Source of the DNA: an uncultured Clostridia bacterium
GTDB lineage: Bacteria > Bacillota > Clostridia > TANB77 > CAG-508
Length of the DNA: 64,000 nucleotides
Direction of reading: 5' to 3'
NCBI GenBank assembly: GCA_947630545.1
Contig: CANRHX010000003.1
Span: 2,177-66,176 of the forward strand
Shown: one piece after another, positions 29,302 through 63,271 of the stretch
Position numbering within the stretch: the first letter of the stretch is position 1
Layout of the letters: each line of letters begins with the position of its first letter
The notes under the pieces: generated by a model
Told to the model about the DNA's origin: nothing
Seen by the model: only the letters and a program-made list of their open reading frames with translations
Database searches by the model: none
Translations under genes and position numbers: made by a program

Positions 29302-29472
29302 AAAAGGCCGATACCCGGACATTTTTGAGCAAATGCAGTAAAATCAATAGTTATAGGGGCAAAATTCACGACCGAAAACACTGAAAATATGGAATAAATG
29401 TAGCGTTTTATGTAAAATGGGCATGCTTAAAAAACAGATGCAAATCTGCCCAAGTTATGTAAAGCTCATTTT

Positions 29473-29935
29473 CTAAACATCGTAGAGGACAAAATTGAAT
29501 TTCAAAACGAAACTTAAAGAAGAATCATAACATTTGTTGAAAATAGTAAGTCCAAGATTGAAGAAGGAATATAGCCTAGAAGTAGAGCCATTTTTGTGCC
29601 TTTTAGTATCGCGAATAATCAAATGATAATGATGTTTATTTTTTACATAGTCAACGCCAATAATGGTAAGCCAGACTAGAGCAACGCACATAACAGTAAA
29701 CAAAGAAATAAAGTGATCAATTTTTTGAGTGTTAGTTGATTCAAGTCTAAAGCCGATTAGTTTTTTGAGATTTAAAAATACACTCAACAGAACCAAAACG
29801 ATATGAATAATTTCTGACAGCATGAGCAGGATTATCATTTGTAACAAGATACCAAGCTTCACCAGTTACACAAGAAAGAATAGAAGTATGAGTAAACCAA
29901 CGGTCAGCAAGAAAAATAATATGATATTGTTTGTT
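29473..29935 (-). pseudogene. DDE transposase (IS4/IS701-like) C-terminal fragment, 5'-truncated and frameshifted
   Basis: Minus-strand frames give 'YHIIFLADRWFTHTSILSCVTGEAWYLVTNDNPAHAVRNYSYRFGSVECIFKSQKTN', then a frame switch into 'GFRLESTNTQKIDHFISLFTVMCVALVWLTIIG...'. The 'Y..R..[IV]E..FK..K' region is typical of IS4-like DDE transposases. No N-terminal half is present. Confidence 0.55.
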
Positions 29936-30205
29936 ATTAAATAAATTAAAGCAAAAGGAAATGCCTTATACGAGAAGGAATGTTTTTTTGCAATATATGG
30001 ATAAAAGGCGTGAGGCTGAAAAATAAGAGAAGAAGGTTTTTAGACAAGTAATATGTCTAAGACCTTCTTTTTAAAAAAGTGTCCGAATAGCAGATAAAAA
30101 TTCTTGCTTTTTATATAACAGTATAGTAAAATATTAATGATGATTAAGGAGAAGAGATTAAGCTTGCTAACTATATTTTAATCTTAGAGAGGAATGTGAT
30201 AAAAA

Positions 30206-31882: not shown

Positions 31883-31894
31883 AAGGGAGAAGAA

Positions 31895-43468: not shown

Positions 43469-44464
43469 TTACATATCAGATAGGGGGTTACTTTCTACAG
43501 CATCACGCACTTGAGTATTTTCAACATGAGTATAAATTTCAGTTGTAGAAATACTTTCATGTCCTAAAAGCTCTTGAAGAGCTCTAATATCAACCTTTCC
43601 ATACTGATACATAAGAGTTGCAGCAGTATGCCTTAATTTATGAACAGAACACTTTTTAGAATCTAATCCAGCAGCATTAAGCTCCTTTTCGACAATATAT
43701 TGAACAGTTCTTCTTCCAATTCTAGTATGTCTTTCACTAAGAAAAAGAGCTTTATTAGAGTTTGAAGTATCTTTTTTTCCTTCTGGTCTAATTTCTAAAT
43801 ATTCTTTAAGTGCCTTCATACAAGCTTTATTAAGATATATAGTTCTTTCTTTGTTGCCTTTACCAATTACTTTCATTTTACATTCAGAAAACTCAATATC
43901 AGAAATATTTATTTCTACTAATTCTGATAAACGCATACCACAATTCAAAAATAGAGTAATAATAGCAAAATCTCTTTTAGCATTTCTATTTTCATCTTCA
44001 TTTGCTGTAACTTCTAATAATTTTTTGCTGTCATCTAATGTTAAATATTTAGGTTGCCTTCGATCAAGTTTAGGATTTTCAAGGTTTTGTGCAGGATTTA
44101 TTTCTAATAATCCTGCTTTTTGAGTTAAATATTTAAAAAATATCCTTATACTTGAAGCTTTTCTGGCTCTTGTTGCAGCCTTACTATGAAATGTGTTGGT
44201 CATATAAGCTAAATAAGCATGAATATCGTTTAAAGTTATTTTTTTAATTGTATCTATCGTAATATCATTTATAGTAATATTGTCTAATTCAGTTACTTTG
44301 GTTAAATTAAAATGCATCTTAATAAACTTTAAAAAACTCATAATATCATAATTATATTCTTTTATTGAATTTGGTGATTTATTTAATATTGTTGCTGAAT
44401 AATCTAAAAAAGAATTTAGGTATTCAGGATTATTATTTCTATCTATCATTTTATTCATCTCCAT
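43469..44464 (-). CDS. Tyrosine recombinase (XerC/XerD family)
   Basis: N-terminal SAM-like domain ('FLDYSATILNKSPNSIKEYNYDI'). Catalytic 'GMRLSEL', 'HKLRHTAAT', 'LLGHESISTTEIYTHV' (R-H-R-Y). Confidence 0.85.
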   Translation of the reverse strand: MEMNKMIDRNNNPEYLNSFLDYSATILNKSPNSIKEYNYDIMSFLKFIKMHFNLTKVTELDNITINDITIDTIKKITLNDIHAYLAYMTNTFHSKAATRARKASSIRIFFKYLTQKAGLLEINPAQNLENPKLDRRQPKYLTLDDSKKLLEVTANEDENRNAKRDFAIITLFLNCGMRLSELVEINISDIEFSECKMKVIGKGNKERTIYLNKACMKALKEYLEIRPEGKKDTSNSNKALFLSERHTRIGRRTVQYIVEKELNAAGLDSKKCSVHKLRHTAATLMYQYGKVDIRALQELLGHESISTTEIYTHVENTQVRDAVESNPLSDM

Positions 44465-45783
44465 ATAAAAGTTACTATTGCATTGCTATCTAAATTATCA
44501 TGAAATGTCTGGTTATTAAAACACAAGTTATATTCTATATTATAAGTGTTTTGATTTAATAAAACAACAACAATCGAATTATCGGGATTTTTAAAAGCAG
44601 TCATATCAATTTTTTCAGTAAATTTACTAAATGCAATTCTAGTAGCTCCGGGCTTAATATATTTACTAAAATGTGCAATATAGTAAAACGAAGGAGTTTT
44701 AATATAGTTGTCATTATTTTTATTAATCATAATAGGACTATTGCAATTATTATGTTTATGATTTGGTCCACCATTATAGTCTAATACCATATTCCAATCA
44801 ATAAAACCATTTACTCCATTGTTAAAATCTCCAATTATTTCTGATGCGTACATTTGAGCATTAAAAAGTTCATCTTGAGGTTTAAATTTAGAATATCCTG
44901 TACAGCCTTCAGTATGAATTAGAAGCTTATTAGCAAATAAATCATGCAATATTTTTAAGTTTTCAAAGTGAGTCCCTGTGTACCAATGAAAAGCAATTCC
45001 TTCGGCATAATCTAAAGCACCATATTTTACTAATGTATCAATTGATCTATTTACAATATTGTCTTTATTATGATCCCAAATAAGAAATTTTGTATTTAGC
45101 TTATTTTTCTTAAAAGTAGGGTATAAGTATTGTTTCAAAAAATTGGCTTCTTCTTCAGCAGAATATCGACAAGACTCCCAAATTTGAGTTGCATTTGGCT
45201 CATTTTGAATTGTCATGTAATCTATATTTATATTTTGTTTTTGGTATTCTTGAACATATTTTACTAAGTATTCAGCCCATAATGATTTGTATTTATTCTT
45301 TAGTTTACCACCTAAGTAAAGTATTTTATTATCTTTCATAAATGCTGGAGGAGACCATGGAGATGCTAAGAATTTAATTTCTGGATTTATTATTAAAGCT
45401 GATTTTATTGTAGGAATAATATAGTTCATGTCTTCAGAGATACTAAAATCAGATAAGTCGTCTTTATTAGAATAAGAATAGCTCTTTGGTGAAAAATCAG
45501 AACTTGCTATTGTTAATCTACATAATGAATAATTTAAGCCATTTTTGTTAAAGTACTCATCTATAATTTTATTTTTAATTTCATTATTAATATTGTTTAA
45601 AACATAGCATGTAGAGCCTGTAAATGCACCACCAAAGCCAATTAACTTTTGATATTCAATACTAGGATATATATTTAAAATGTTGTTTTCAATTTTGTCA
45701 TTGTATGTTTTTGTATGATTAATTTCTGTTTGATGCAAATATAAATTTCTTTTAATGTTTGTTTCAATTTTGGTAATTTTCAT
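44455..45783 (-). CDS. Glycoside hydrolase family 30 (glucosylceramidase-like)
   Basis: 'GFGGAFTGS', 'ASPWSPPAFMK', 'YMTIQNEPN', 'HTEGC' typical GH30. GGAGG lies 5 nt before ATG 45783. The 3' end overlaps the recombinase start. Confidence 0.8.
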   Translation of the reverse strand: MKITKIETNIKRNLYLHQTEINHTKTYNDKIENNILNIYPSIEYQKLIGFGGAFTGSTCYVLNNINNEIKNKIIDEYFNKNGLNYSLCRLTIASSDFSPKSYSYSNKDDLSDFSISEDMNYIIPTIKSALIINPEIKFLASPWSPPAFMKDNKILYLGGKLKNKYKSLWAEYLVKYVQEYQKQNINIDYMTIQNEPNATQIWESCRYSAEEEANFLKQYLYPTFKKNKLNTKFLIWDHNKDNIVNRSIDTLVKYGALDYAEGIAFHWYTGTHFENLKILHDLFANKLLIHTEGCTGYSKFKPQDELFNAQMYASEIIGDFNNGVNGFIDWNMVLDYNGGPNHKHNNCNSPIMINKNNDNYIKTPSFYYIAHFSKYIKPGATRIAFSKFTEKIDMTAFKNPDNSIVVVLLNQNTYNIEYNLCFNNQTFHDNLDSNAIVTFIWR

Positions 45784-45803
45784 TTTTGCCTCCATTCTTT
45801 GTT

Positions 45804-46552: not shown

Positions 46553-49500
46553 ATGAAAAAGCTTACTGATTTTATTGTTGAACACAGAAATTTAATGTTA
46601 ATTATATTTATAATATTTTCAGTAATTGCTGTTATAGCATCAAATAAAGTCAACATAAATTATGATATTGCTAAATATTTGCCAGATTCATCAGAAACTA
46701 GAATAGGCCTAGATATTATGGAAGATGAATTTGAAGAGACGCAAAGCAGTATGAATTTAATGTTTAATGGACTTGCAGAGGATGAAAAAGATCAAATTTT
46801 TAATGAACTAAAAGATATTCATGGAATTAGTTCTGTAGATTATGATAAAACTCAAGATTACAATAAGGATGATTATACTTTATATATTATTCATGTAGAT
46901 GATGTTGAGGATTCTGAAATAGCAAAAGAAGTATATGAAACTATTGATGAAAAATATAAAGATTATGAAACTTTTACAAGTGGTGAAATATCTCAAAGGA
47001 ATAATCCTGTACTTCCAATGTGGATTATTGTTTTAGCAGTAGGTTGTGCATTCATAATTTTAGTTATTATGAGTGAATCTTATATTGAACCATTTTTGTT
47101 TTTATTTGCAATTTTAATGGCAGTTTTATTAAATAAAGGTACAAATATATTTTTCGATAATGTATCTAATATTACAAGTTCAATTACAGCAATATTGCAA
47201 ATGGCATTATCTATGGATTATTCAATAATGCTTATTAATAGATATAGACAAGAAAAAGAACATGAAAAAGATAAAGTAAAAGCTATGAAAGGAGCTTTAT
47301 ACAATGCATTTAAATCCATATCAAGTAGTTCAATTACAACAATAGTTGGTCTTATGGCATTAGTGTTTATGAGCTTTAAAATAGGTCAAAATTTAGGCTT
47401 AGTTTTAGCAAAAGGAGTATTATTTAGTTTAATATGTATTTTCTTTGTATTACCTGCATTAATTTTAATGTTTGACAAATTAATTGCAAAAACAAAAAAG
47501 AAATGTCCACATATGAAATTAGATGGTTTAGGAAAATTTAGTTACAAAATTAGATATATTTCAATTCCAATTTTTATTTTAGTATTTTTATTTAGTTTTA
47601 TAGAAAAGGGGAATTTGAATATATTATATACTGAAAATCAGTCTGATACTGTATCAAAAGTCTTCACAGAAAACAATCAAATTGCTGTAGTTTATAAAAA
47701 TGAAGATGAAGAAGAAATATCTAAAAAATTAACTGATTTAGAGAATATAGATAAAGTTAAAGAAGTATTAGGTTATGGAAATACTATAAATCAAGAATTA
47801 AAATATAATGAATTAAATGCAAAATTAAAAGACTTAGGAGCAGATGTATCTATTGAAGATTATCTATTACAAATTTTGTATTACAACTATTATAACCAAG
47901 ATGAAAATAATAATATTACTTTTGATGAGTTCATATCTTTTATAAAAAATGATGTTTATAACAATGAAAAGATGATGGAAAAAGTAGATAATGAAATTAA
48001 GGACAATGTAGATAAACTAGAAAATTTTACTAATGAAAAATTATATAATAAAAAAATTACATCAGCACAAATTTCAGATATTTTAGGTATAGATAAACAA
48101 AAAGTCGATGATATTTTAATTTATTATAATTCTAAAAATAATAATTTAAAAATTAGTTTATCTGATTTTATAAATTTTATGAACAATGATGTTTTAACAA
48201 ATGAAAAATATTCTAAAAAAATAGATAATACATCTAAAGCTAATTTAAAAAGATTATCAAAATTTACTAATAAATCTACTATTCAAAAGAAAATGACAAG
48301 TAAAGAGATGGCAAATTTATTTGGCATAGATAAAAATACTGTAGACCAATTATATAATTATTATATGAGTTTAAATAAAATCGAAACTAAACTTACTCTT
48401 CATCAATTTTCAGAATTTGTATTAAATGATGTATTAAAAAATAGCGAATATGCAGATTTATTTGATAATCAAACTATAAATAATATAAATATGCTAAATA
48501 CATATAGTGATAAAAGTATTATAACTAAAAATATGAATTCAAAAGAATTATCAAAATTATTTAATATAGAAGAAAATTCAGTTAAACAATTATTATTTTT
48601 AAAGTATAGTAATTTAGATTATGGCAAAAAAATAACTATTTCGGAATTTATAAATAGTATAGTAAATATTAAGGAAAATACTAATTATTTAGCAGATATA
48701 GACATAAGCAGTATAGAAAAATTAAAAGAATTTTTAGATGATGATAGCATTACTGCAAATAAAACTGAATATTCAGAACAACAAATGGCAAATTTATTAA
48801 ATATGGAATTTAGTCAGGTAAGTCAATTATATGCTCTAATTGATATGACTCAAAACAATACTAGTAGTTGGAATTCAACACCTTATGATTTTGTTGAATT
48901 GATAATAAAAAATAAAGATAGGGAAGATATTAAAAATTCTATTGATACTAATTCTTTAAATAATTTACAATTAGCTTTTAGCATAATGAATAATACTTTA
49001 AATAACAAATCTTATTCTTATAAGGAATTATCAAATTTTATAGGAATTGATTCAAATGACAGTAAGAATATTTATACTTTATATAAGATTAAAAATACTA
49101 CTTTAAAATTAACTCCACAAAATTTTGTTAATTTCATATTAAACCATAAAATTGATTCTACTTTATCAGGTGCTTTAGATAAAAGTACAATAAAAGATTT
49201 GAATTTAGTTCAATCTGTTATGAATGGAGTATTAAATAATAAAAAATATACTAGCGCTGAAATGAGTAATTTACTGGGAATAAATGGAGAAGATTTGAAT
49301 TTATTATATGGATTATATAATACTAAACATGTAAATACTAACCCTAAAATTTCATTAAAAGATTTTGTAAATTTCCTAGAAACTGATGTAATGAAAAACG
49401 CCGAATATTCAAGTAACTTTACTGATAAATCAAAAACAAAAATAGATACTATAAATGGCATTATTAAAGCAAGTATCAATAAAACTAAATATTCAAAAGA

Positions 49501-50407
49501 GGAAATATTTACTATTTTAAGTAAATTGGATGATAATTTGGATAAAGATAAGATTGATTTAGTATATATTTATTATGGTAGCAATAATGAATTTAATGAT
49601 GAGTGGACTTTGACAGTAGAAAAGTTTATTGATTATTTAAATGATAAAATTTTGAAAGATAATAGATTTGATGATTTTATAGAAGCGGATATGAGAAACC
49701 AAATTACAGATGCAAAAGAAAAAATATCAGATTCAAAAGAATTATTGATAGGCGACAAGTATTCAAGAGTTGTTTTAAATACAGATTTTGATCCTGAATC
49801 AGAAGAGACTTTTTCGTTTATAAAAAATTTAAAAAATATATTTGGAAATAAGGCTTATATTGCTGGAAATTCTGTAATGGCTTATGAAATGAGTAACACA
49901 TTTAATGATGAATTAAATTTTATTACAATCCTTACTATGGTATCAATTTTCGTTGTTGTAGCAGTAACATTTAAGTCAATAATTATACCAATAATTTTGG
50001 TTCTTACTATACAATGCGCAGTTTATGTGACAATGGGAATATTATCTTTTTCAGGCGAAGGTGTTTACTTTATTGCTCTTCTAATTGTTCAAAGTATATT
50101 AATGGGAGCAACAATAGATTATGCAATTTTATATACATCATATTATATTGAACATAGGCGAACAATGAATATGAAAGAAGCTATAATTAATTCATATAAT
50201 AAATCTATTCATACAATATCAACTTCTGCATCTATTTTGATTATTGTTACATTAATTGTAGGACATTTTTCTTCAGCAATAACTTCACAAATATGTAAGA
50301 CTATTTCAGCTGGAACAATCTGTTCAACAATGTTAATATTGTTGTTATTGCCTTCTGTAATTGCAATTTGTGATAAATTAATTGTAAAACATAAGAAAAA
50401 AAGTTAG
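46553..50407 (+). CDS. MMPL/RND-superfamily transporter with greatly expanded repeat-containing extracytoplasmic region
   Basis: 1284 aa. Two MMPL-type TM bundles (about aa 150-350 and about aa 1110-1280; e.g. 'ILQMALSMDYSIMLINRYRQE', 'IVQSILMGATIDYAILYTSYY') flank a roughly 650-aa repeat region. Confidence 0.85.
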   Translation: MKKLTDFIVEHRNLMLIIFIIFSVIAVIASNKVNINYDIAKYLPDSSETRIGLDIMEDEFEETQSSMNLMFNGLAEDEKDQIFNELKDIHGISSVDYDKTQDYNKDDYTLYIIHVDDVEDSEIAKEVYETIDEKYKDYETFTSGEISQRNNPVLPMWIIVLAVGCAFIILVIMSESYIEPFLFLFAILMAVLLNKGTNIFFDNVSNITSSITAILQMALSMDYSIMLINRYRQEKEHEKDKVKAMKGALYNAFKSISSSSITTIVGLMALVFMSFKIGQNLGLVLAKGVLFSLICIFFVLPALILMFDKLIAKTKKKCPHMKLDGLGKFSYKIRYISIPIFILVFLFSFIEKGNLNILYTENQSDTVSKVFTENNQIAVVYKNEDEEEISKKLTDLENIDKVKEVLGYGNTINQELKYNELNAKLKDLGADVSIEDYLLQILYYNYYNQDENNNITFDEFISFIKNDVYNNEKMMEKVDNEIKDNVDKLENFTNEKLYNKKITSAQISDILGIDKQKVDDILIYYNSKNNNLKISLSDFINFMNNDVLTNEKYSKKIDNTSKANLKRLSKFTNKSTIQKKMTSKEMANLFGIDKNTVDQLYNYYMSLNKIETKLTLHQFSEFVLNDVLKNSEYADLFDNQTINNINMLNTYSDKSIITKNMNSKELSKLFNIEENSVKQLLFLKYSNLDYGKKITISEFINSIVNIKENTNYLADIDISSIEKLKEFLDDDSITANKTEYSEQQMANLLNMEFSQVSQLYALIDMTQNNTSSWNSTPYDFVELIIKNKDREDIKNSIDTNSLNNLQLAFSIMNNTLNNKSYSYKELSNFIGIDSNDSKNIYTLYKIKNTTLKLTPQNFVNFILNHKIDSTLSGALDKSTIKDLNLVQSVMNGVLNNKKYTSAEMSNLLGINGEDLNLLYGLYNTKHVNTNPKISLKDFVNFLETDVMKNAEYSSNFTDKSKTKIDTINGIIKASINKTKYSKEEIFTILSKLDDNLDKDKIDLVYIYYGSNNEFNDEWTLTVEKFIDYLNDKILKDNRFDDFIEADMRNQITDAKEKISDSKELLIGDKYSRVVLNTDFDPESEETFSFIKNLKNIFGNKAYIAGNSVMAYEMSNTFNDELNFITILTMVSIFVVVAVTFKSIIIPIILVLTIQCAVYVTMGILSFSGEGVYFIALLIVQSILMGATIDYAILYTSYYIEHRRTMNMKEAIINSYNKSIHTISTSASILIIVTLIVGHFSSAITSQICKTISAGTICSTMLILLLLPSVIAICDKLIVKHKKKS
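47795..49750 (+). repeat. About 8 tandem degenerate protein repeats of about 80 aa inside the MMPL gene
   Basis: Recurring pattern '[YM][TS]..[EQ][MI][SA].L[LF][GN]I[DE]...[VL]..LY..Y......K[IL][ST]L..F[IV]NF[IL]..DV..N..Y.......K..[IL]..L'. Example pair: 'MTSKEMANLFGIDKNTVDQLYNYY' and 'YTSAEMSNLLGINGEDLNLLYGLY'. Confidence 0.75.
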
Positions 50408-54191: not shown

Positions 54192-54320
54192 TATTTGTTA
54201 GAAATAAAAATTATAAGGGTACACTAAAAAATTAAAAAAATTAGTAAATGTATAGACAAATATAAAATAATATTGTAGAATAATTATTATAGAAAATGAC
54301 TAATGAAGGAGAGATGTATA

Positions 54321-55094
54321 ATGGATAATAATAAAAAAAGAATATCTTTAACTGTATATATAATTACATTAATTTTTATGCTGGTTATTATAGCTATATT
54401 AGGCTATATTATTGTGAAAAAAAATAATAGTAGCAATAATAATGTAAACAATATAACTACTGGAGTAAATACAGAAATAGAAAGTAATATAACTACTGCA
54501 GTTAATACGGAAAATGTAAATACTATAAATACTTCAGCTAATACAGAAAATGTAAATAATGAAAGCTCTAATGTAGGTGAAGTAGATAATATAGAAGAAT
54601 TACAAAAAATTTTAGAAAAGTATCTCTATATATATAGTTTAAAGGATACTGGAGCAACAATTTTAACAAGAGATGAAGGTAGATTTCCTTATGTATTAGA
54701 TTTCTATAAAACATATGATGAATTAGAAAAAGACTTAAAAAAAAGTAAAGAAAAAATAATAGATGAAGATGGATATGAATTTGAATTATATAAAACTAGT
54801 ATCCAATATTCAGAATATAAAGAAAAATTACTAAATTATATGTCAGAAAATTTATTTGAAGAAAATTTTACAAGGTGTCAAAAAGATATCAATGGTATAT
54901 TGTATGTCACTAAATCCGGAGGAGATGGAAGAGGCTATAAAATTATAAAGATGACTAAAAATAGTGATAATTCTTATGATGTAGCGTGTAAGTATCAAGA
55001 AGGAGAAAATCCATATACTGATGTTAGCTTAAATGTTACTTTTGGTAAAAATAATAAAGGAATTGTTATTGTAGAAAGTTGTGTTTTTGAGTAA
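54321..55094 (+). CDS. Membrane-anchored hypothetical protein
   Basis: N-terminal TM (ISLTVYIITLIFMLVIIAILGYIIV), Asn/Thr-rich linker with 'NTENVN' repeats, C-terminal globular domain; GGAG RBS before ATG 54321. Confidence 0.5.
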   Translation: MDNNKKRISLTVYIITLIFMLVIIAILGYIIVKKNNSSNNNVNNITTGVNTEIESNITTAVNTENVNTINTSANTENVNNESSNVGEVDNIEELQKILEKYLYIYSLKDTGATILTRDEGRFPYVLDFYKTYDELEKDLKKSKEKIIDEDGYEFELYKTSIQYSEYKEKLLNYMSENLFEENFTRCQKDINGILYVTKSGGDGRGYKIIKMTKNSDNSYDVACKYQEGENPYTDVSLNVTFGKNNKGIVIVESCVFE

Positions 55095-55890: not shown

Positions 55891-55917
55891 GCAGATAATT
55901 AGTTGCTAATTATCTGC
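55891..55917. terminator. Perfect 12-bp hairpin, bidirectional terminator overlapping the tdk stop
   Basis: GCAGATAATTAG-ttg-CTAATTATCTGC followed by TTTT on the + strand. Confidence 0.7.
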
Positions 55918-56448
55918 TTTTAAGCTTAATTTGTTATAACAATTTCTACAAACTGGTATATATTCCGAATCTCCTATATAAACATCACTATTTTTTTGAC
56001 CTTTAAAAAATGAAAAAATTGCACATTCATTTTTGCAAATTTCACAAATAGAAGTCATCATTTGAACATTATCAGATATACACATTAAATCGCCCATTTT
56101 GCCAAAAGGCTTTTTTTCAGCAGTTAAATTAAGACCAGAAATATAGAATTTTTTACCGTTTGTAGCCATTTTTTCAATTGTATCAACTTCGCCATTTAAA
56201 AATTGAAATTCATCAATAAAATAAATATCAGCATTGTAATTTTGTAATTCTTCAATAGAATTTATATTAATTGCTTCAACCTTATTTCCAGAACGAGTTT
56301 GAACAATATTATTTCCATATCTATTATCAATACTAGGTTTAAAAACTTTAATATCTTTTCCTGTTATTATTTGTCTATCTAGTTCATTAAGCATTTTCTG
56401 TGTTTTTCCACATTTCATTGGACCAGTAAAAACATTAATATCTCCCAT
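55906..56448 (-). CDS. tdk: Thymidine kinase (TK1 type)
   Basis: 'VFTGPMKCGKTQ' P-loop, 'YFIDEFQF', C-terminal zinc ribbon 'CEICKNE...PVCRNCY'. Confidence 0.9.
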   Translation of the reverse strand: MGDINVFTGPMKCGKTQKMLNELDRQIITGKDIKVFKPSIDNRYGNNIVQTRSGNKVEAININSIEELQNYNADIYFIDEFQFLNGEVDTIEKMATNGKKFYISGLNLTAEKKPFGKMGDLMCISDNVQMMTSICEICKNECAIFSFFKGQKNSDVYIGDSEYIPVCRNCYNKLSLKADN

Positions 56449-56621
56449 AACTATTACCTCATATTTTGTAAAAATTTCTTAATTATTATATCATACTCCA
56501 AAAAGATTTCAATTAATATTTGATAATTTAACATTTTTATTATAATACCCGAGTTTGCTACTAAATTAAAATTTATTTTTCTAATACCACTATAGACTTA
56601 TTATTTTTTTTATAAAAAGTA

Positions 56622-56650
56622 TTGACAAAAAATATAATAGTATGTATAAT
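56622..56650 (+). promoter_or_regulatory. Consensus sigma-A promoter of the his-like/PurC-like operon
   Basis: TTGACA 56622-56627, 17-bp spacer, TATAAT 56645-56650; AGGAGG RBS about 5 nt before ATG 56703. Confidence 0.6.
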
Positions 56651-56702
56651 ACATATAAAGTTACTTATTGTAAAAAATATAATAAGTCAGAAGGAGGAAA
56701 AT

Positions 56703-57602
56703 ATGAAATTAAAAACAGGAAAATTAAATAATAGAGAAAGAAAATTTATATCAATACGAAAGAGTAAATTTGATGAATATGTAAAAAAATTAGATTTTGT
56801 AGAAAAATACAAAATTACACAGTATTATTTTCAAAATTACAAATATAGAAAATTTGAATCAGATGAAATTAAATTTACAAAAAGCAAAAAAGAAGGAGAA
56901 TTTACAACTGTTGAAGAAATATCTGAAAAAGAATTTTTAGAAAATTATAGTTATAATGTAGCAATAGTAAAGGAAAGAAACAAATTTAAAGATGGATTAT
57001 ATATTGTTGAAATAGATAAGTTTATACTACCTATACAAATTACTATGATAGAAGTTTCAAGTGATACTGAAGATTTAAAAAAGTATAAGTGCCCAGAAAC
57101 ATTTATTGAGGTCACTGATAATCCAATATATAAAAATATCAATATAATAAAAGGCAGTATAAAAAAATCTAACATAATAGTAGAAGGAACAGATGGAGTT
57201 GGAAAAACTACAACTATAATAAAGTTATTAGAAGATGGAATTGTATGTCAAGATAGATGTGAAGAAGTAATATCTAAGAATATGGTATTTAATGTAAATG
57301 ATAAAAAAAGAGCAAAAGAGATATATGAAAAATATTTCTCTATGAATACGGATATCTTAATTATTTTTCTAATAAATCTTGATAAAAAAGAATTAGAAAG
57401 TAGAATTTATCAAAGAGAAAGAATTTCAGAGTTTGATTTAAAAGCATATGAATATGGGCTACTTTATAAACAAACTTATGAGTATATGATAAAAAAATAT
57501 AATACTAAAGGTAGATTAATTTTGATAGATTGCAGTGGATTAAATATAGAAGAACAATATGAAAAAGTTAAAAATGTCATAATTGGAAAGGAGATGGATT
57601 AA
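56703..57602 (+). CDS. CYTH (triphosphate tunnel metalloenzyme) domain fused to a P-loop thymidylate/deoxynucleoside-kinase-like domain
   Basis: N-terminal half: 'NRERKFISI...ITQYYF...IVEIDKFILPIQITMIEVSS...FIEVTDNPIYKNINI' follows the CYTH pattern (EXEXK...QGYL...vD.f....l.l.EvE...EVT.d..Y.N). C-terminal half: 'IIVEGTDGVGKTT' P-loop from about nt 57183. Confidence 0.7.
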   Translation: MKLKTGKLNNRERKFISIRKSKFDEYVKKLDFVEKYKITQYYFQNYKYRKFESDEIKFTKSKKEGEFTTVEEISEKEFLENYSYNVAIVKERNKFKDGLYIVEIDKFILPIQITMIEVSSDTEDLKKYKCPETFIEVTDNPIYKNINIIKGSIKKSNIIVEGTDGVGKTTTIIKLLEDGIVCQDRCEEVISKNMVFNVNDKKRAKEIYEKYFSMNTDILIIFLINLDKKELESRIYQRERISEFDLKAYEYGLLYKQTYEYMIKKYNTKGRLILIDCSGLNIEEQYEKVKNVIIGKEMD

Positions 57603-58289
57603 ATGAAAATAGCTTTAATAACAGGTTGTAATAGAGGACTTGGAGAAGGAATAAGAAACATCTTATTAGAACAAGGATATAAAGTAATAGGTTTGAATCG
57701 AACTATTTCAAACCAAATAATAGAAAATTATACAGAAATAGAGTGTGATGTTTCAAAATATGAAAATATTCAAAAGATAAAAAACAAAGTAGATAAAAAA
57801 ATTGATTTATTGGTAATTAATGCAGGAATCAGAAGATTTGAAAAAATAGAAAATATGAAAGTGGATGACTGGAAAGATTCAGTAAATACAAATTTGAATG
57901 GTGCATTTTATGTATTAAATACATTTATAGAAAATGTAAAAAATGCTAAAGGTGATGTAGTAATAGTTGGTTCACATTCAGAAAAATACACCTTTGAAGA
58001 AGGAGGAGCATATTGTTCTACAAAACTAGCATTAAGAGGATTGGCAGAATGTTTAAGAGAAGAATTAAGATATGAAGATGTAAGGGTTTCTTATTTATCA
58101 CTTGGAAGTATAAAAAATAGGAATCACGGAATTTATGAAGACTGGAAATTAATGCCAGAGGAAGTTGGAAGGGCAATTGTAAATATTATAGATTTACCTA
58201 AAAAAATTTATATTCCATATTTAGACATAAGACCACTGAAACCACTAAAAGATCAAAAGAAAGGAATTGAGAGATTACAATATGTTTAA
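57603..58289 (+). CDS. Classical short-chain dehydrogenase/reductase (candidate CofA/PenB-type ketoreductase)
   Basis: 'ALITGCNRGLGEG' (TGxxxGxG), 'INAG', 'GSHS...YCSTK' catalytic S-Y-K. The start abuts the upstream stop (TAAATG). Confidence 0.85.
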   Translation: MKIALITGCNRGLGEGIRNILLEQGYKVIGLNRTISNQIIENYTEIECDVSKYENIQKIKNKVDKKIDLLVINAGIRRFEKIENMKVDDWKDSVNTNLNGAFYVLNTFIENVKNAKGDVVIVGSHSEKYTFEEGGAYCSTKLALRGLAECLREELRYEDVRVSYLSLGSIKNRNHGIYEDWKLMPEEVGRAIVNIIDLPKKIYIPYLDIRPLKPLKDQKKGIERLQYV

Positions 58290-59286
58290 TATAAAATGTA
58301 ATTATCAAATAACTATAGATAAAGAAAATGAGTTTATTGCAAAAATTTCACCACGAGAAAAAGTTTGCGTAAAAACTATAAATGCGTATGGAGATAGGTT
58401 TAAAAATATAAGCGAATTGATAGAACTAATAAATAACAAAAATGGTAAAACCCACCATCACCCATTAACAGGACCTATTTATATAGAAAATGCAAAACCA
58501 GGAGATGTACTAAAAGTTCATATATACAAAATAGATGTAGAAGAGATGGCACAAAGTATGTCTAAAACAGCAGGAATAGACCCAATAGAAAGCTCAGAAA
58601 TATCAGAAAGAGTACCTGCTATAGCAAAAAGATTAAAAAATGAATTAAAATATTTAAATAACATAAAGCTAAACTATAAACCTATGATAGGTATAATAGC
58701 AACAGCACCTAATGGTGAAAAAATAAAGACAGGTCATGCTGGACTTAGGAATGGTGGAAACCTAGACTTACCATTTATTACAGAAAATACAGATATATAT
58801 CTTCCTGTTGATATAGAAGGAGCTGGCTTATATTTAGGAGATATACATAGCTTGCAATCTTATGGAGAATTAAGTGGAATAGCAATGGAAGCATCTAGCA
58901 AAATTATACTTGATGTAGAAGTGATAAAAACTAATGAGCATTTAGATAATATTTTGGTAATTGGAAAAGAACCATTTTCGGAAAAAGAAGGAATTGGAAT
59001 TGTCGGAATAGGAGAAAAGATGAAAATGGAAGCTTCAGTATATGATGCATTTCAAGGAACTTATAATTTATTAAAACAAATTCTACCTAATTTGCCTAAA
59101 AATATTATTAAATCACTAATATCACTAATAGGAAATTCATTTAATGGTCAGGCATTTTCAAAAACATCAGAGTCAACGAGTATAATAGTTATTACAAAAG
59201 AAAATATTGAAAGAATAACACAAAATAAATATGAAGATTTATCAAAAGAAATTGAAAAAGTTTTATTTAAGAAAATTGAAGTATAA
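58267..59286 (+). CDS. Acetamidase/formamidase (FmdA/AmdA)-family protein
   Basis: 'HHHPLTGPIYIENAKPGDVLKVHIYKIDV' and 'GGNLDLPFITENTDIYLPV...GAGLYLGDIHSLQSYGE' match this family. The start (TTG 58267 or ATG 58282) overlaps the SDR stop. Confidence 0.75.
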   Translation: MRDYNMFNIKCNYQITIDKENEFIAKISPREKVCVKTINAYGDRFKNISELIELINNKNGKTHHHPLTGPIYIENAKPGDVLKVHIYKIDVEEMAQSMSKTAGIDPIESSEISERVPAIAKRLKNELKYLNNIKLNYKPMIGIIATAPNGEKIKTGHAGLRNGGNLDLPFITENTDIYLPVDIEGAGLYLGDIHSLQSYGELSGIAMEASSKIILDVEVIKTNEHLDNILVIGKEPFSEKEGIGIVGIGEKMKMEASVYDAFQGTYNLLKQILPNLPKNIIKSLISLIGNSFNGQAFSKTSESTSIIVITKENIERITQNKYEDLSKEIEKVLFKKIEV

Positions 59287-59300
59287 AAAGGAGGAAAAAT

Positions 59301-60488
59301 ATGAGTGAAAAACCTATAATTAAGTTAAGTGCTGGAAAAGGAAAATTATTACCTGTATTACAAGAATATTTGAAAAGTATAGGTCTTCCAGAAATAGAAG
59401 AGTCAAGAAAATTAGTTCATAAAATTGAAACACCTAATTACATTTTAGAAATTACTCTTTTAAGATGGGAAGATATAAAAAGATATAGTGATAAGTTCGA
59501 TATGATTATTTATGGAAGTGACCAATGGTTAGAAAGTGAAGACAAATCTATGATTTCTTTGAAATATTTCGAACAAAAAAATTGTAGAATAAGTTTACTA
59601 GTAAAAAAAGAACTAGCATATAAGCCATTTAGTTATTTTCAAAAAAGAAAAGTAGCAACACTCTATGAAAATTTAGCAGAAGATTATTTAGGAATAACAG
59701 AGGAAAATATAGTAAAGATTTCAGGTAACGTAGAAGCAGCTATTTCATTAGGGTGGGCCGATAGTATATTTGATGTTGTAGAAACAGGAACAAGTGCAAA
59801 AGAGAATGGACTTATAGAATATAAAACATTTGTAAAATTTGGAGCAATTTTAGCAACGAAAAAGGTAGAAAAAATTGATTTGTTTGAAAAATTAAGTTTA
59901 ATACCAAAACAAGAAAAAGGTAAAATCATAGCATTTGATGGATTAGATGGTTCAGGAAAATCTACACTAGCTAAATATTTGGTGCAAAATCCAATAATGG
60001 ATACAAACTCTAAGGTATTAATAACTCCATATTCAGGCAGAGTAGGAATTGAAGCAAAAAAATTATGGGATGAAGGCAAGTATGTAGAATGGGCTACAGA
60101 GATTGGTAAAAAACATTGGAGAGCGCCTAAATATGTAAATAGTATATACGATAGATCAATACTAACATTTATGACAGATTTAATAAAACAAAAATTTACA
60201 GATGAACAAATTTTAGAAGTAATAAATATATGGAAGCCTCTGCCAGATGTACTATTTTATTGCGACATATCACCAGAAATTGCTTTAGAAAGAACAAACA
60301 AAAGAAATAAAGGACAAGATGATTTTGATGAACTACAATCATTAAAAGAATACTACGTATTGTATAAAAAAGCAGTAGAATTTGTAAAAAAATATAATTT
60401 AACAAAAGTAGTAAAATTAAATACAAATAGACAAATTTCAGAAGTTATAAATATTGTTAAAGAAGATTTAGAAGGGAAAGTGAGGTAA
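59301..60488 (+). CDS. ATP phosphoribosyltransferase (short-form HisG)-like domain fused to a thymidylate-kinase-like domain
   Basis: N-terminal about 200 aa: 'IKLSAGKGKL', 'IIYGSDQWLE', 'KVATLYENLAEDYL', 'ISGNVEAAISLGWADSIFDVVETGTSAKENGL' (HisG signature region). C-terminal: 'IIAFDGLDGSGKST' P-loop and 'PDVLFYCDISPEIALERTNKR' (TMPK-like). Confidence 0.8.
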   Translation: MSEKPIIKLSAGKGKLLPVLQEYLKSIGLPEIEESRKLVHKIETPNYILEITLLRWEDIKRYSDKFDMIIYGSDQWLESEDKSMISLKYFEQKNCRISLLVKKELAYKPFSYFQKRKVATLYENLAEDYLGITEENIVKISGNVEAAISLGWADSIFDVVETGTSAKENGLIEYKTFVKFGAILATKKVEKIDLFEKLSLIPKQEKGKIIAFDGLDGSGKSTLAKYLVQNPIMDTNSKVLITPYSGRVGIEAKKLWDEGKYVEWATEIGKKHWRAPKYVNSIYDRSILTFMTDLIKQKFTDEQILEVINIWKPLPDVLFYCDISPEIALERTNKRNKGQDDFDELQSLKEYYVLYKKAVEFVKKYNLTKVVKLNTNRQISEVINIVKEDLEGKVR

Positions 60489-60490
60489 CT

Positions 60491-61246
60491 ATGTATACAA
60501 TAAAAAATAAAATTCCAGAAATAGAAGGTAAGTCTAAAAAAATATATAAATTAGATGAAAATAATTATTTTATGTGTTTTAAACCACATTTAAGGTCTAT
60601 AACATCTAAAAGAGAAAAAAATATAGAAGGAACAGAACATGAAAGATTACTAGCTAATATGTATTTTATGAACTTACTAGAAAGCAAAGGAATAAAAACA
60701 CAAATAAAAAATAAAAATATTCAAAATATTGATGGACAAGAAGGAATAATGGTAAAAAAAATAAAAACAATTCCTCTAGAATTTATTTGTAGATACTATG
60801 CAGCAGGAAGTATAGTAAGATTATATCCAAGTTTAGTAAAAGAAGGACAAAAATTTAAAAAGCCATTATATAAATTTGACTTAAAACAAGATATTAAAGT
60901 TGCAGGAGTAGATGATCCAACATTAAATGAAAATTATATTGTAGGATTAGAAATTTTAACGCAAGAGGAATTTGAAAAAACAAAAAACATATTAGCAAAA
61001 ATAGGAGAAATAGTAAGAGAAAATTTAGAAAAAGCTAAAATGAATTTAATAGATATGAAAATGGAAATGGGATTTGATGAAAAAGGACAAATAGTAGTAA
61101 TAGATGAAATTTCTCAAGATTGTATAAGAGCTAATGATATTGAAACAGGAAAAAGCTTAACAAAGGATTTATTTAGGCAATTGAAAAATGATGAAGAAGT
61201 TTTAAATGCATATATAGAATTTAATAAAAGGCTAGAAATAAAATAG
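60491..61246 (+). CDS. SAICAR-synthetase (PurC)-family protein, divergent (candidate CofB/PenC-type cyclase)
   Basis: 'EGKSKKIYKLDENNY', 'IPLEFICRYYAAGS', 'LIDMKMEMGFDEKGQIVVIDEISQDCIRANDIETGKSLTKDLFRQ' align along the whole length with PurC as I remember it. The segment where PurC has a D-x-x-T-A-F-[ND]-type motif reads 'FKPHLRSITSKRE'. Confidence 0.75.
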   Translation: MYTIKNKIPEIEGKSKKIYKLDENNYFMCFKPHLRSITSKREKNIEGTEHERLLANMYFMNLLESKGIKTQIKNKNIQNIDGQEGIMVKKIKTIPLEFICRYYAAGSIVRLYPSLVKEGQKFKKPLYKFDLKQDIKVAGVDDPTLNENYIVGLEILTQEEFEKTKNILAKIGEIVRENLEKAKMNLIDMKMEMGFDEKGQIVVIDEISQDCIRANDIETGKSLTKDLFRQLKNDEEVLNAYIEFNKRLEIK

Positions 61247-61263
61247 TATATGGAGGTAAGAAT

Positions 61264-61710
61264 GTGAAGGATTCAGAAAAAAGATATAGAGTATATGAAT
61301 ATATGAGAGATAATAAAGAAATAACAGAAGAAATGTCAAACACTAAAAAAATCATTTTAAAACTTATGAATAACGATAAACAAACTGAAGAATATTGTAA
61401 TAAAAAAATATTAGAAGAAAAGCAAGAAATAGAAGAAGCAATGATAGGAGAGCACTATCATGAGAATATGACTAAAAGAGAAATTCTAATAAATGAAATA
61501 TCGCAATATATTTATTGGCAAACTTTACTGGCAGTAAGTAAAAAAATTAAATATGAAGATTTTGATGGAGAGAATAAAATAGAAGAAATTTTAAAAAAAG
61601 TTGATATTAAAAAAATAGAAGAAACGAAATTAATAACCGTAAATGAAGTAATTCTACATGACTTAGAGCAAATGAAAAATAAAGAATATCTAAAAAAAGT
61701 AATTGTATAG
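61264..61710 (+). CDS. All-alpha NTP pyrophosphohydrolase, HisE (phosphoribosyl-ATP pyrophosphatase)/MazG-like
   Basis: 'KKILEEKQEIEEAM...REILINEISQYIYWQTLLAVSKKIKYEDF' parallels the HisE 'K[VI]GEEA.E......E.[IL].E.ADL.YH..VLL...G[IV]...[VI]' helices. GTG start after GGAGG. Weaker call. Confidence 0.5.
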   Translation: MKDSEKRYRVYEYMRDNKEITEEMSNTKKIILKLMNNDKQTEEYCNKKILEEKQEIEEAMIGEHYHENMTKREILINEISQYIYWQTLLAVSKKIKYEDFDGENKIEEILKKVDIKKIEETKLITVNEVILHDLEQMKNKEYLKKVIV

Positions 61711-61775
61711 TATAAAGTAATCTATAAAAACTAAAGATTAATACTTAATAAAATAACATTAAGGAGGAGAAAAGA

Positions 61776-62735
61776 ATGATAATACCTTCAATTGATATAA
61801 TGAATGGAAAAGTAGTTCAACTAAAACAGGGAAAAGAGAAAGTATATGAAAACGATAATATAGAAGAGGTAGTAGAACAATTTAGAATATTTCCACAAAT
61901 AAATGTTATAGACTTAGATTTAGCAATAAATAATGGAAGTAATAAAGAACTAATTAAAAAACTATGTAGAAAATTAACTTGTAATGTAGGTGGGGGAATT
62001 AGAAGTACTAAGTTAGCAAAAGAATTTTTAAATGCAGGTGCAAATAGTGTAATAATAGGAACTAAAGCCAATAAGGAATTTTTAACAGAATTACCTAGAA
62101 ATAAGATAATAGTAGCATTAGATACTAAAAATGGTAAAATAGCTACACATGGCTGGAGTGAACTAAAAGAAGAAAATATTTATGAAAAAATACACGAATT
62201 AGAGGACTATTGTTATAAATTTTTAATTACGAATATAAATGTAGAAGGACTAAATAAAGGCACAGATCTAAAGTTTTTTGAAACATTAGTAGGAAAAACT
62301 AAAAATGATATTATGGTTGCAGGAGGAATTACAACTATTGAGGAAATAAAATATATTCATAAACTAGGTTTTGATCAAATATTAGGAATGGCTATAACTT
62401 CTGGTAGATTAAATATTATGGAATGTTATATAGAAATAATGGATTTTAAAAAACAAAATGGATTAATACCAACAATAGTACAAGATATATATACAAAAGA
62501 AGTTTTGATGCTTGCTTATTCTTGCAAAGAAAGTTTGAAAAAAACATATGAGATAAGAAAGGCGACTTATTATAGTAGAAGTAGAAAAAAATTATGGACA
62601 AAAGGAGAAAAAAGTGGTAACATACAATATATAGAAAAAATTTATTTAGACTGTGATTCAGATACAATTTTGTTTTTAGTAAGACAGAAAGGAATGGCAT
62701 GTCATAGAAATAAAAGTACATGCTTTACGATATAG
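61776..62735 (+). CDS. HisA-like (ProFAR isomerase TIM barrel) fused to HisI (phosphoribosyl-AMP cyclohydrolase)
   Basis: N-terminal: 'MIIPSIDIMNGKVVQLKQGK', 'NVGGGIRS', 'VIIGT', 'MVAGGITT' (HisA/HisF fold). C-terminal from about nt 62448: 'GLIPTIVQDIYTKEVLMLAYSCKESL...YYSRSRKKLWTKGEKSGNIQYI...DCDSDTILFLVRQKGMACH' (PRA-CH). Confidence 0.85.
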   Translation: MIIPSIDIMNGKVVQLKQGKEKVYENDNIEEVVEQFRIFPQINVIDLDLAINNGSNKELIKKLCRKLTCNVGGGIRSTKLAKEFLNAGANSVIIGTKANKEFLTELPRNKIIVALDTKNGKIATHGWSELKEENIYEKIHELEDYCYKFLITNINVEGLNKGTDLKFFETLVGKTKNDIMVAGGITTIEEIKYIHKLGFDQILGMAITSGRLNIMECYIEIMDFKKQNGLIPTIVQDIYTKEVLMLAYSCKESLKKTYEIRKATYYSRSRKKLWTKGEKSGNIQYIEKIYLDCDSDTILFLVRQKGMACHRNKSTCFTI

Positions 62736-62761: not shown

Positions 62762-63271
62762 ATGCCAGGATATGCAATACATTTAGCAATAGGTAAGGTT
62801 TACCAGCAAAATAATGATATTAATGATATAAAGAGTTTTGAAAGAGGAATTATAACACCAGATTTAGCAAAAGATAAAGCCAAATCTCATTATGGAACAT
62901 ATTCAAGTAATCCAGACTTAAATAGATATTTAAAAGAAAAAAATATTTTAAATGAATTTGATGAAGGATATTTTTTACATCTAGTAACTGATTATTTGTT
63001 TTATAATAAATATTTAAAAAAATGGGATAAGAATATTTATAATGATTATGATAAGCTAAATGATAGAATAATAAAAAGATATAACATTGTACTTCCAAGA
63101 TATTTATTAGAAATAGTAAATATTAAAGATGGAAAATTAGAAATATTAAATGAAGAAGATATATATAGATTTATAGATGTTGTTGGAAAAATAAATATTA
63201 GAGAATTATTAAGAGAAAAGGTAGTAAACTTTCAAAATAAGGTATCAGAAATACAATTTGAAGGAAGATAA
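62762..63271 (+). CDS. Hypothetical protein (possibly metal-dependent hydrolase-like)
   Basis: 169-aa ORF 26 nt after the HisA-HisI gene, with a GGTGAG RBS. 'GYAIHLAIG...SHYG...YFLHLVTDY' is His-rich but I cannot assign a family. Confidence 0.4.
   Translation: MPGYAIHLAIGKVYQQNNDINDIKSFERGIITPDLAKDKAKSHYGTYSSNPDLNRYLKEKNILNEFDEGYFLHLVTDYLFYNKYLKKWDKNIYNDYDKLNDRIIKRYNIVLPRYLLEIVNIKDGKLEILNEEDIYRFIDVVGKINIRELLREKVVNFQNKVSEIQFEGR

Follow-up and report, generated by a model that had tools for sequence, protein, structure and literature searches.

Coformycin and pentostatin are transition-state inhibitors of adenosine deaminase that are used clinically. In the searchable literature, their sources are actinomycetes and a few fungi only. 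Both compounds are made with a HisG-like protein (PenA), a homologue of the synthetase of succinocarboxamide-aminoimidazole ribotide (SAICAR; PenC/CofB) and a short-chain dehydrogenase/reductase (SDR; PenB/CofA) (PMC12648386; 10.1101/728154), and the ade clusters encode a dedicated HisA copy, AdeK (PMC12648386, PMC13055916, 10.1101/728154). In the fungus Cordyceps militaris, Cns3 is a fusion of a nucleoside kinase with HisG, and pentostatin protects the cordycepin (PMC8719641). Here we describe an operon in a 64-kb stretch of DNA, a low-GC (~26%) segment of the chromosome of an uncultured Clostridia bacterium; the whole stretch is called the window in the following. The operon unites genes for the early steps of histidine biosynthesis with a PurC-like gene, an SDR gene and an amidohydrolase gene, and it very probably encodes a dedicated pathway to a modified purine nucleotide and not a set of housekeeping functions. 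Judged from the gene content, we lean towards a coformycin-type 1,3-diazepine nucleotide as the product. Neither this cluster nor a Firmicute, gut or anti-phage version of it is described in the searchable literature.

The operon and its four-gene core

At least nine co-oriented and tightly packed genes stand under one promoter, in the order CYTH+kinase, SDR, FmdA-type amidohydrolase, HisG~kinase (the tilde marks a fusion), PurC-like, HisE-like, HisA-HisI, small all-alpha protein and NrtR-like regulator. The original prediction had described seven genes. Their common orientation, the single promoter and the distances at the junctions are as it stated; the operon itself continues past position 62735 with gene 8 and with the NrtR-like gene, the last one being cut by the window end. 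The features are as follows (aa, amino acids).

56622-56650, + strand: sigma-70-type promoter, TTGACA-17 nt-TATAAT, consensus match 12/12
56663-56687, no strand assigned: 25-bp palindrome ACTTATTGTAAAAAATATAATAAGT between the -10 box and the ribosome-binding site, 10-nt arms, 90% complementary
56703-57602, + strand: gene 1, 299 aa, N-terminal CYTH/triphosphate-tunnel fold and C-terminal P-loop kinase; accessory
57603-58289, + strand: gene 2, 228 aa, classical SDR (Pfam adh_short, 119 bits)
58267-59286, + strand: gene 3, FmdA/AmdA-family amidohydrolase, 339 aa from the TTG at 58267 (Pfam FmdA_AmdA, 89 bits); core
59301-60488, + strand: gene 4, 395 aa, short-form HisG (~aa 1-200) and dTMP-kinase-like nucleoside monophosphate (NMP) kinase (~aa 205-395); core
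60491-61246, + strand: gene 5, 251 aa, divergent SAICAR-synthetase (PurC) fold (Pfam SAICAR_synt, 132.5 bits); core
61264-61710, + strand: gene 6, 148 aa, probably a HisE-like (MazG-type) phosphoribosyl-ATP pyrophosphatase, with a C-terminal extension
61776-62735, + strand: gene 7, 319 aa, HisA (isomerase of phosphoribosylformimino-aminoimidazole carboxamide ribotide, ProFAR; aa 1-215) and HisI (phosphoribosyl-AMP cyclohydrolase; aa 219-319)
62762-63271, + strand: gene 8, 169 aa, small all-alpha protein; accessory
63337 to beyond 64000, + strand: NrtR-like (Nudix-related) transcriptional regulator, frame open to the window end

A mobile core is made up of four genes, those for the SDR, the amidase, HisG~kinase and the PurC-like protein. 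The order SDR-Fmd-HisG~kinase-PurC-like is found at 42-87% identity in Clostridia metagenome-assembled genomes (MAGs) from the gut of mouse, rabbit, pig and other sources, in two DPANN-type archaeal MAGs and in one MAG with 69% GC. All recovered loci have the order Fmd-HisG~kinase-PurC-like, nearly always together with the SDR. The gene order, whose conservation in related genomes had been put forward as a check, is kept in more than 20 loci of very different organisms, which is far beyond chance, and the PurC-like variants P0047 and P0050 are each found in >200 blocks of the assembly collection. Several of the genes are also joined by fusion: Fmd~HisG~kinase in L011 (737 aa), HisG~kinase~PurC-like in P0362, PurC-like~gene 6 in L004, L006 and P0081, and HisA~HisI~HisE in L012, a locus from a Nanoarchaeota MAG. 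The most constant partners of the PurC-like gene are the amidase and HisG~kinase; the amidase gene is found in every locus that spans its position, and the SDR gene adjoins it in nearly all loci. Both the amidase and the HisG-fused kinase had been regarded as extra modules, together with the CYTH and kinase domains of gene 1. For gene 1 this description is appropriate, as it lies outside the conserved core; the amidase and the HisG-fused kinase belong to it. HisE, HisI and HisA are carried only by some lineages, namely the window clade and L012. A 309-aa open reading frame (ORF) located upstream in L010 was considered as a relative of gene 1 or of HisA-HisI and was rejected, being related to neither.

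Profile searches recovered the SDR and the formamidase-family enzyme that had been read from the sequence. The translation of gene 2 shows the TGxxxGxG and YxxxK motifs of the SDR, and gene 3, which is called as 334 aa in the identical locus L098, matches an acetamidase/formamidase structure (3tkk, E = 4e-28). Gene 4 matches the Pfam families HisG (82.5 bits) and Thymidylate_kin (39.5 bits), exceeds the cutoff of TIGR00070 (87.4 against 75.75 bits) and matches structures of short HisG and of thymidylate kinase in the PDB. In gene 4, conservation from Clostridia to the Nanoarchaeota MAG and the 69%-GC MAG includes the signature loop of the HisG part and, in the kinase part, the P-loop FDGxDGxGKS, the YDR motif and the lid arginine. 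Of the two thymidylate-kinase-like domains claimed originally, the one fused to HisG is confirmed; the corresponding half of gene 1 can be assigned to the P-loop kinases in general and not demonstrably to the thymidylate-kinase type.

The set for the supply of the HisA product consists of the HisE-like gene and the HisA-HisI fusion. Gene 7 matches two Pfam families over their full length (His_biosynth with 140.5 bits, PRA-CH with 107.8 bits) and is found by tblastn with E. coli HisA (E = 3e-17) and HisI (E = 3e-28). Its HisI domain exceeds the cutoff of NF000768 (136 against 126); its HisA domain lies below the equivalog cutoff. Of the four histidine domains described at first, HisG, HisI and HisA are clear in profile searches, and HisE is only weak: the NCBIfam model PRA-PH matches gene 6 with E = 4.6e-4 (20 bits), and the best PDB match of the gene-6 profile is HisE of M. 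tuberculosis with E = 0.12, an EISQxxYW helix being common to both. In L012, a true PRA-PH domain that is fused to HisA-HisI takes the role of gene 6, and the similarity between gene 6 and this true HisE domain was not significant in BLASTP. In the 69%-GC locus L086, a gene-6 homologue (E = 1e-15) directly follows the PurC-like gene. On the basis of the weak profile matches, the position and the fusions, a HisE-like function of gene 6 is probable. With the E. coli proteins HisD, HisC, HisB, HisH and HisF as tblastn queries, no match with E < 1 was obtained in the 64-kb window, in agreement with the original prediction, and these late histidine genes are likewise absent from the related loci that were inspected. 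The window lineage carries HisE, HisI and HisA of its own, presumably for want of a his operon.

The PurC-like enzyme and the proposed pathway

The PurC-like family was aligned with 89 ordinary PurC proteins including E. coli PurC, whose numbering is used here. It keeps 22 near-universal positions (G10, K11, K13, E90, R94, G99, S100, K123, D125, D129, P130, D175, K177, E179, D191, E192, S194, D196, R199, K211, D212 and R215), among them residues that bind ATP/Mg and the ribotide phosphate. The conserved DxTA...KG segment of PurC (E. coli positions 29-50; gene 5 aa 31-52) is replaced by an invariant KPHLRSITSKRE..GT[DE], and further positions are altered, namely Q69 (His in most PurCs), N95, D119 (Glu in most PurCs), P195 and D210. 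As the ATP and ribotide residues are kept and this segment is rewritten, the PurC-like protein looks like an ATP-using, imidazole-ribotide-binding enzyme with a changed pocket for the second substrate. We propose that gene 5 encodes the ring-forming enzyme.

Gene 5 remains well below the equivalog cutoff of TIGR00081 purC (116.4 against 189.9 bits), and its family forms a clade of its own: between the family and the next sequences, which are ordinary PurCs of Petrotoga and Aquificaceae, the score decreases from 283 to 129 bits. Together with the one replaced segment, this bears out the original view of a locally rewritten PurC that is not a housekeeping enzyme. The family has 251 relatives among 90%-identity clusters (5.8 billion proteins) and three full-length representatives in a 50%-identity library (1.84 billion proteins). 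A search of a plasmid collection gave ordinary purC only, and the viral contigs of IMG/VR contained no PurC-like relative. Because of the latter result, we regard the cassette as not phage-borne.

As was first pointed out, the logic of the gene set is that of pentostatin and coformycin biosynthesis, with a HisG homologue, a SAICAR-synthetase homologue, an SDR and access to HisE, HisI and HisA (PMC12648386, 10.1101/728154). We hypothesize a self-contained pathway in which ATP and phosphoribosyl pyrophosphate (PRPP) would be withdrawn from the housekeeping synthesis of histidine and purines to make a modified purine nucleotide. HisG would combine ATP and PRPP to N1-phosphoribosyl-ATP, from which the HisE-like protein would remove pyrophosphate. 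HisI would then open the purine ring to yield ProFAR, and HisA would convert ProFAR to its phosphoribulosyl isomer (PRFAR). For the subsequent steps, the FmdA-family amidohydrolase may convert the primary 4-carboxamide to a carboxylate like that of carboxyaminoimidazole ribotide (CAIR), and the PurC-like enzyme could activate this carboxylate with ATP and close the seven-membered ring to a diazepinone. The SDR, which is proposed to be an analogue of CofA/PenB, would reduce the 8-keto group. The NMP kinase fused to HisG might phosphorylate either the nucleotide product or the adenine-nucleotide substrate. The route by amidase plus ligase is proposed because the 4-carboxamide is the sole primary amide and its hydrolysis gives a carboxylate of the type that PurC activates. 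To our knowledge, PRFAR has only two fates, the HisHF reaction and the CofB reaction, and the presence of a dedicated HisA together with an SDR is therefore informative.

Several observations weigh against a coformycin-type pathway. Gene 6 is only weakly recognisable as HisE. A number of lineages have the four-gene core only, with no HisE, HisI or HisA in the locus; such a core-only cassette would fit a reliance on the his operon of the host, where present. No conserved exporter or dedicated nucleotidase is found in the cluster, and the obligatory FmdA-family amidase and the HisG-fused NMP kinase have no role in the published bacterial pathway. In addition, the 150 representatives nearest to the PurC-like protein in the library of 1.84 billion include no sequence like that of a high-GC actinomycete other than one member of the family itself, which argues against a close kinship with CofB/PenC. 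The recruitment of a PurC-type enzyme may therefore have been independent, and its chemistry may differ. A solved structure of CofB or PenC does not exist.

Genomic context and alternative readings

The consensus promoter claimed before (56622-56650) is the sole 12/12 match among 74 promoter-like sites within 55.8-64 kb, and no terminator-like site was seen downstream of it in this range. Both hexamers are invariant across five related loci, and promoter and leader together (~100 bp) hardly vary between loci in which the gene-1 proteins share only ~60% identity. The TTG at 56622 was considered as the start of gene 1 and rejected, as it is the -35 box and the real start is the ATG at 56703 behind GGAGGA. 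A riboswitch is disfavoured because the 46-nt leader is too short; an Rfam scan of the whole window had no match, and neither tRNA genes nor CRISPR-like repeats were found in the window.

The palindrome, with the shared pattern ACTTAWT..ATAATAAGT, is present as a single copy per locus (in the window and in L001, L002, L004-L008, L081-83, L092 and L098), and this copy invariably lies where the operon begins, at its 5' end. Its position is independent of the first gene, which can be gene 1, the SDR gene, purA/purB (L001) or a PurA-family gene (L002, L005). The NrtR-like gene lies downstream in five of seven related loci. Its product has 258 aa at full length in the identical contig L099, where a Ser_hydrolase+HAD gene follows, and the C-terminus as truncated in the window matches Pfam NrtR_WHD with 30.2 bits. 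The palindrome is a good candidate for the operator to which the NrtR-like protein would bind, and the whole operon is probably controlled through it. In L001 (2378-5053), a close relative without gene 1, a canonical purA (GDEGKGK motif) and purB open the operon behind the palindrome, and in L002 (3683-5029) and L005 (2774-4105), which also have no gene 1, a PurA-family protein with 27-28% identity to the L001 PurA is encoded. These purine genes could supply AMP as substrate or, as is the case in the biosynthesis of formycin, modify a 6-oxo analogue.

The CYTH domain claimed for gene 1 is recovered by structure; a Pfam search gave nothing above cutoff. The N-terminal half of the AlphaFold2 (AF2) model, which has a predicted local distance difference test (pLDDT) score of 93, resembles structures of the triphosphate tunnel metalloenzyme (TTM)/CYTH type in Foldseek (7ns8, E = 2.9e-6, probability 1.0), and the protein also matches the kinase+TTM module of Arabidopsis TTM1 (7z67). 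The ExExK motif reads N10-x-E12-x-K14 with an invariant Asn instead of the first Glu, and the catalytic competence of the CYTH domain is therefore uncertain. Gene 1 is present in some loci only and absent from most; in P0282 it is fused to the SDR. Homologues with 43-50% identity occur in Bacilli MAGs within a different operon (L084:3017-7705, L085:5306-9994). This operon has no pathway gene and appears as an uncharacterised nucleoside-handling module, comprising a PnuC-like transporter, Nuc_deoxyrib_tr, a 278-aa unknown protein, CYTH+kinase, a gene-8 homologue, an NrtR-like protein and a Ham1-type inosine triphosphatase (ITPase). As genes like gene 1, gene 8 and the NrtR-like gene stand together there, they form a separate nucleoside/nucleotide module, inside which the pathway genes are nested in the window. 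Gene 8 (AF2 model with pLDDT 91) belongs to a family of 1358 members at E <= 1e-3, in which H7, D34, H43 and H73 are invariant and D77 is near-invariant. Nothing significant was found for it in the PDB by sequence, profile or Foldseek, the weak top matches being clostridial zinc phospholipase C, and its homologue in L085 has a weak match to Pfam Zn_dep_PLPC. Gene 8 is possibly a metal-dependent phosphoesterase.

Beyond the operon, a thymidine kinase gene (55906-56512, - strand) is oriented divergently, with the same layout in the identical contig L098. A near-consensus promoter of this gene, TTGAAA-16-TATAAT preceded by a TG, is situated in the shared intergenic region of 250 bp. Housekeeping genes elsewhere in the window include SUF genes, a class-III fructose-bisphosphatase gene, uvrB, a penicillin-binding protein gene and cysS. 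The uvrB ORF (32355-33863) starts at the UvrB interaction domain, the N-terminal helicase part being outside the ORF; an AAA-ATPase_like/PDDEXK_9 gene (30206-31882) lies upstream of it and the GC content is locally higher (0.34 at 28-30 kb). In the region 28021-33863, uvrB may have been split by an insertion. A gene for a tyrosine recombinase of the phage-integrase family overlaps the end of a GH30 glycosidase gene (43469-45795, - strand); this overlap, ~12 kb upstream of the operon, may be the edge of an integrated element. At 46553-50407, a 1284-aa membrane protein of the MMPL/RND type has weak helix-turn-helix-like matches in its middle, which is an unusual architecture. A membrane-anchored protein of 263 aa (54303-55094) contains a 36-nt in-frame tandem repeat (54441-54560) with N/T-rich units and matches no family significantly.

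In the window clade, the neighbours of the cassette are mostly housekeeping genes with few defence-like ones. Other lineages have different surroundings. In one sublineage, in which the PurC-like proteins are 76-81% identical to each other, type III-A csm genes and a CRISPR array immediately precede the cassette. The lineage with the triple fusion carries it between a dGTPase (PADLOC, 201 bits) and Cas9, with a SIR2-domain gene further along (recognised by Pfam and not by PADLOC). In the 69%-GC locus it is situated between HEC-01A/B (522 and 225 bits) and a TIR protein, L010 has PDC-S01 (335 bits) and L012 has HerA (149 bits) as neighbour, and in further loci the last gene is one for an R2K ATP-grasp protein or for a DNA methyltransferase. 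Restriction-modification genes are also among the neighbours in other lineages. Because the core adjoins immune genes in this way, a role in conflict is suggested, although the pattern is anecdotal. The anti-phage or conflict role considered in the original prediction is supported by this context and not by similarity of the operon's own proteins: searched against PADLOC-DB 2.0, the eight proteins gave generic kinase matches only (VakA 2e-8, PDC-M51B 1e-6) and fit no defence model. The product is likely to act in conflict, either by inhibiting the deaminases of adenosine, AMP or ATP or as a toxic nucleotide analogue, with phages, competitors or the animal host as target.

The type III-A loci immediately upstream of the cassette (L090:19-5909, L094:3-4224, L095:2-5377) are compact. 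They contain a Cas10 with HD domain, Csm2 and two repeat-associated RAMP proteins; Csm5 and Csm6 were not seen. L090 contains in addition an array of 29-nt repeats and flanking IS605 TnpB genes. This lineage has two additional ORFs (99 aa and 239 aa), for which no match to gene 6 or to a Pfam family was obtained. The idea that the cassette is an accessory of type III CRISPR activated by cyclic oligoadenylate (cOA) was rejected, as the adjacent Cas10 has no GGDD cyclase motif. In a four-gene-core locus from pig gut (L093:1-1997), PRTase_2/TRSP and C-C_Bond_Lyase genes and a gene for a 539-aa PRK-family kinase are located upstream; they are components of a predicted Ter-associated pathway for a nucleoside-like metabolite.

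We speculate, as a tentative idea, that the four-gene cassette is a horizontally mobile and so far unrecognised 'chemical immunity' module which turns ATP into a ring-expanded purine nucleotide, possibly a di- or triphosphate. Such a compound would block adenine-nucleotide deaminases or polymerases during attack by phages or competitors, or gut commensals would use it to raise adenosine signalling of the host, and its ring would be closed by an ATP-consuming amidase-plus-ligase route unlike that of actinomycete CofB.

The same enzymes might also form a nucleotide other than a diazepine, for example an N1-ribosylated or rearranged purine signal, or a SAICAR-like conjugate made by ligase chemistry after de-amidation. 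N1-phosphoribosyl-ATP is formally an opened N1-cyclic ADP-ribose, and a CYTH-type cyclase could close the ring. Such a product would agree with the full ATP/Mg site of a real ligase that the PurC-like protein retains, with the amidase and kinase that coformycin/pentostatin chemistry leaves unexplained, with the CYTH domain and the ADP-ribose-type NrtR regulator that are attached in the window lineage, with the TIR, CRISPR and other immune genes that adjoin the cassette elsewhere, and with the many loci that have no HisI and HisA. We nevertheless consider it unlikely. In the self-contained versions (window and L012), HisI and HisA suggest a branch point at PRFAR and not at phosphoribosyl-ATP, the CYTH gene is missing from most loci, and the near-constant SDR fits a keto reduction; the neighbouring Cas10 without GGDD moreover speaks against an effector driven by cOA.

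The classical histidine-purine cycle is well established, and a shunt for purine salvage or interconversion in reduced genomes could be derived from it. It would lead from ATP to aminoimidazole carboxamide ribotide (AICAR), its formyl derivative (FAICAR) or inosine monophosphate (IMP), with the amidase in place of HisHF, and would balance adenine and guanine nucleotides. The hosts, low-GC gut MAGs and DPANN archaea, are in keeping with such a function, as are purA and purB at the start of the L001 operon, the PurA-family gene at the start of L002 and L005, and the Ham1-type ITPase that is often found downstream. This explanation is nonetheless doubtful, as neither PurH nor an IMP cyclohydrolase is present, the SDR and the ATP-using PurC-like enzyme would have no role, and a single deaminase would do equally well. 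A mobile core whose surroundings vary and are often rich in defence genes, and which is also found at 69% GC, is likewise difficult to reconcile with a shunt.

An abortive-infection effector that drains ATP and PRPP, with the downstream enzymes only making the drain irreversible, is very unlikely. Defence-island neighbours in several lineages and the stoichiometric use of ATP and PRPP by HisG would suit it, but the window operon has a perfect consensus promoter, a candidate operator and a regulator and no phage sensor, five to eight conserved enzymes exceed what depletion needs, and known defence proteins are matched only through generic kinase domains. Finally, an ordinary split histidine operon with a housekeeping purC and unrelated neighbours, an alternative already named in the original prediction, is hardly credible even though HisG and HisI exceed their NCBIfam equivalog cutoffs, given 64 kb without HisD, C, B, H and F, PurC-like and HisA domains under their equivalog cutoffs, a separate PurC-like clade that is always linked and sometimes fused to HisG~kinase and the amidase, and the same gene set in a Nanoarchaeota MAG.

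If the operon does encode a diazepine nucleotide pathway, the range of this chemistry would widen to include new phyla and the gut, in which adenosine signalling of the host could be altered by an inhibitor of adenosine deaminase. The combination of an amidase with an ATP-using PurC-like enzyme would then be a new route to the diazepine ring, and a pathway related to the known ones, yet enzymatically distinct from them, would be common in Clostridia of the animal gut and present in DPANN archaeal MAGs. A nucleotide-analogue pathway could also join the systems of microbial conflict, given its position beside CRISPR-Cas, dGTPase, HEC-01/TIR, PDC-S01, HerA and restriction-modification genes.

Comparison with described systems

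Compared with SAICAR synthetase PurC, which catalyzes step 7 of purine biosynthesis, the PurC-like protein has the same fold and conserved ATP/Mg and ribotide-phosphate residues. However, it is only ~30% identical to PurC, is never found in the context of a pur operon and can have HisG~kinase or the HisE-like protein as its fusion partner. With early histidine biosynthesis, the operon shares the four activities from ATP and PRPP to PRFAR, of which HisG and HisI pass the equivalog cutoffs. In contrast to that pathway, the short HisG is fused to a kinase and not paired with HisZ, the HisE-like protein can barely be recognised as such, HisA stays below its cutoff, and no HisH, F, B, C or D is encoded in the 64 kb.

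The HisG-fused kinase had been thought to have no counterpart, which does not hold, since Cns3 of Cordyceps militaris combines the same two types of domain (PMC8719641) in a pentostatin-linked pathway. The kinase is N-terminal in the eukaryotic Cns3 and C-terminal in gene 4, and the comparison is one of domain architecture. A PurC-like or FmdA-type partner is not described for the cns cluster.

The closest described systems are the pen, cof, ade and prf clusters of actinomycetes. Like the operon, they combine homologues of HisG and of SAICAR synthetase with an SDR and need the activities of HisE, HisI and HisA, for which the window operon has its own HisE-like gene and HisA-HisI fusion. The known clusters belong to cultured actinomycetes, whereas the cassette is found in low-GC uncultured Clostridia, in DPANN archaeal MAGs and in one 69%-GC MAG; no companion genes for an adenosine analogue (the 'protege') are recognised beside it, and it often stands next to immune genes. 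We do not file the operon as a member of the pen/cof clusters because the survey of nearest relatives argues against close kinship and because of its two obligatory components, its taxa and its contexts. New here, in comparison with these clusters, are the amidase and the NMP kinase as obligatory components, the taxa and the genomic contexts.

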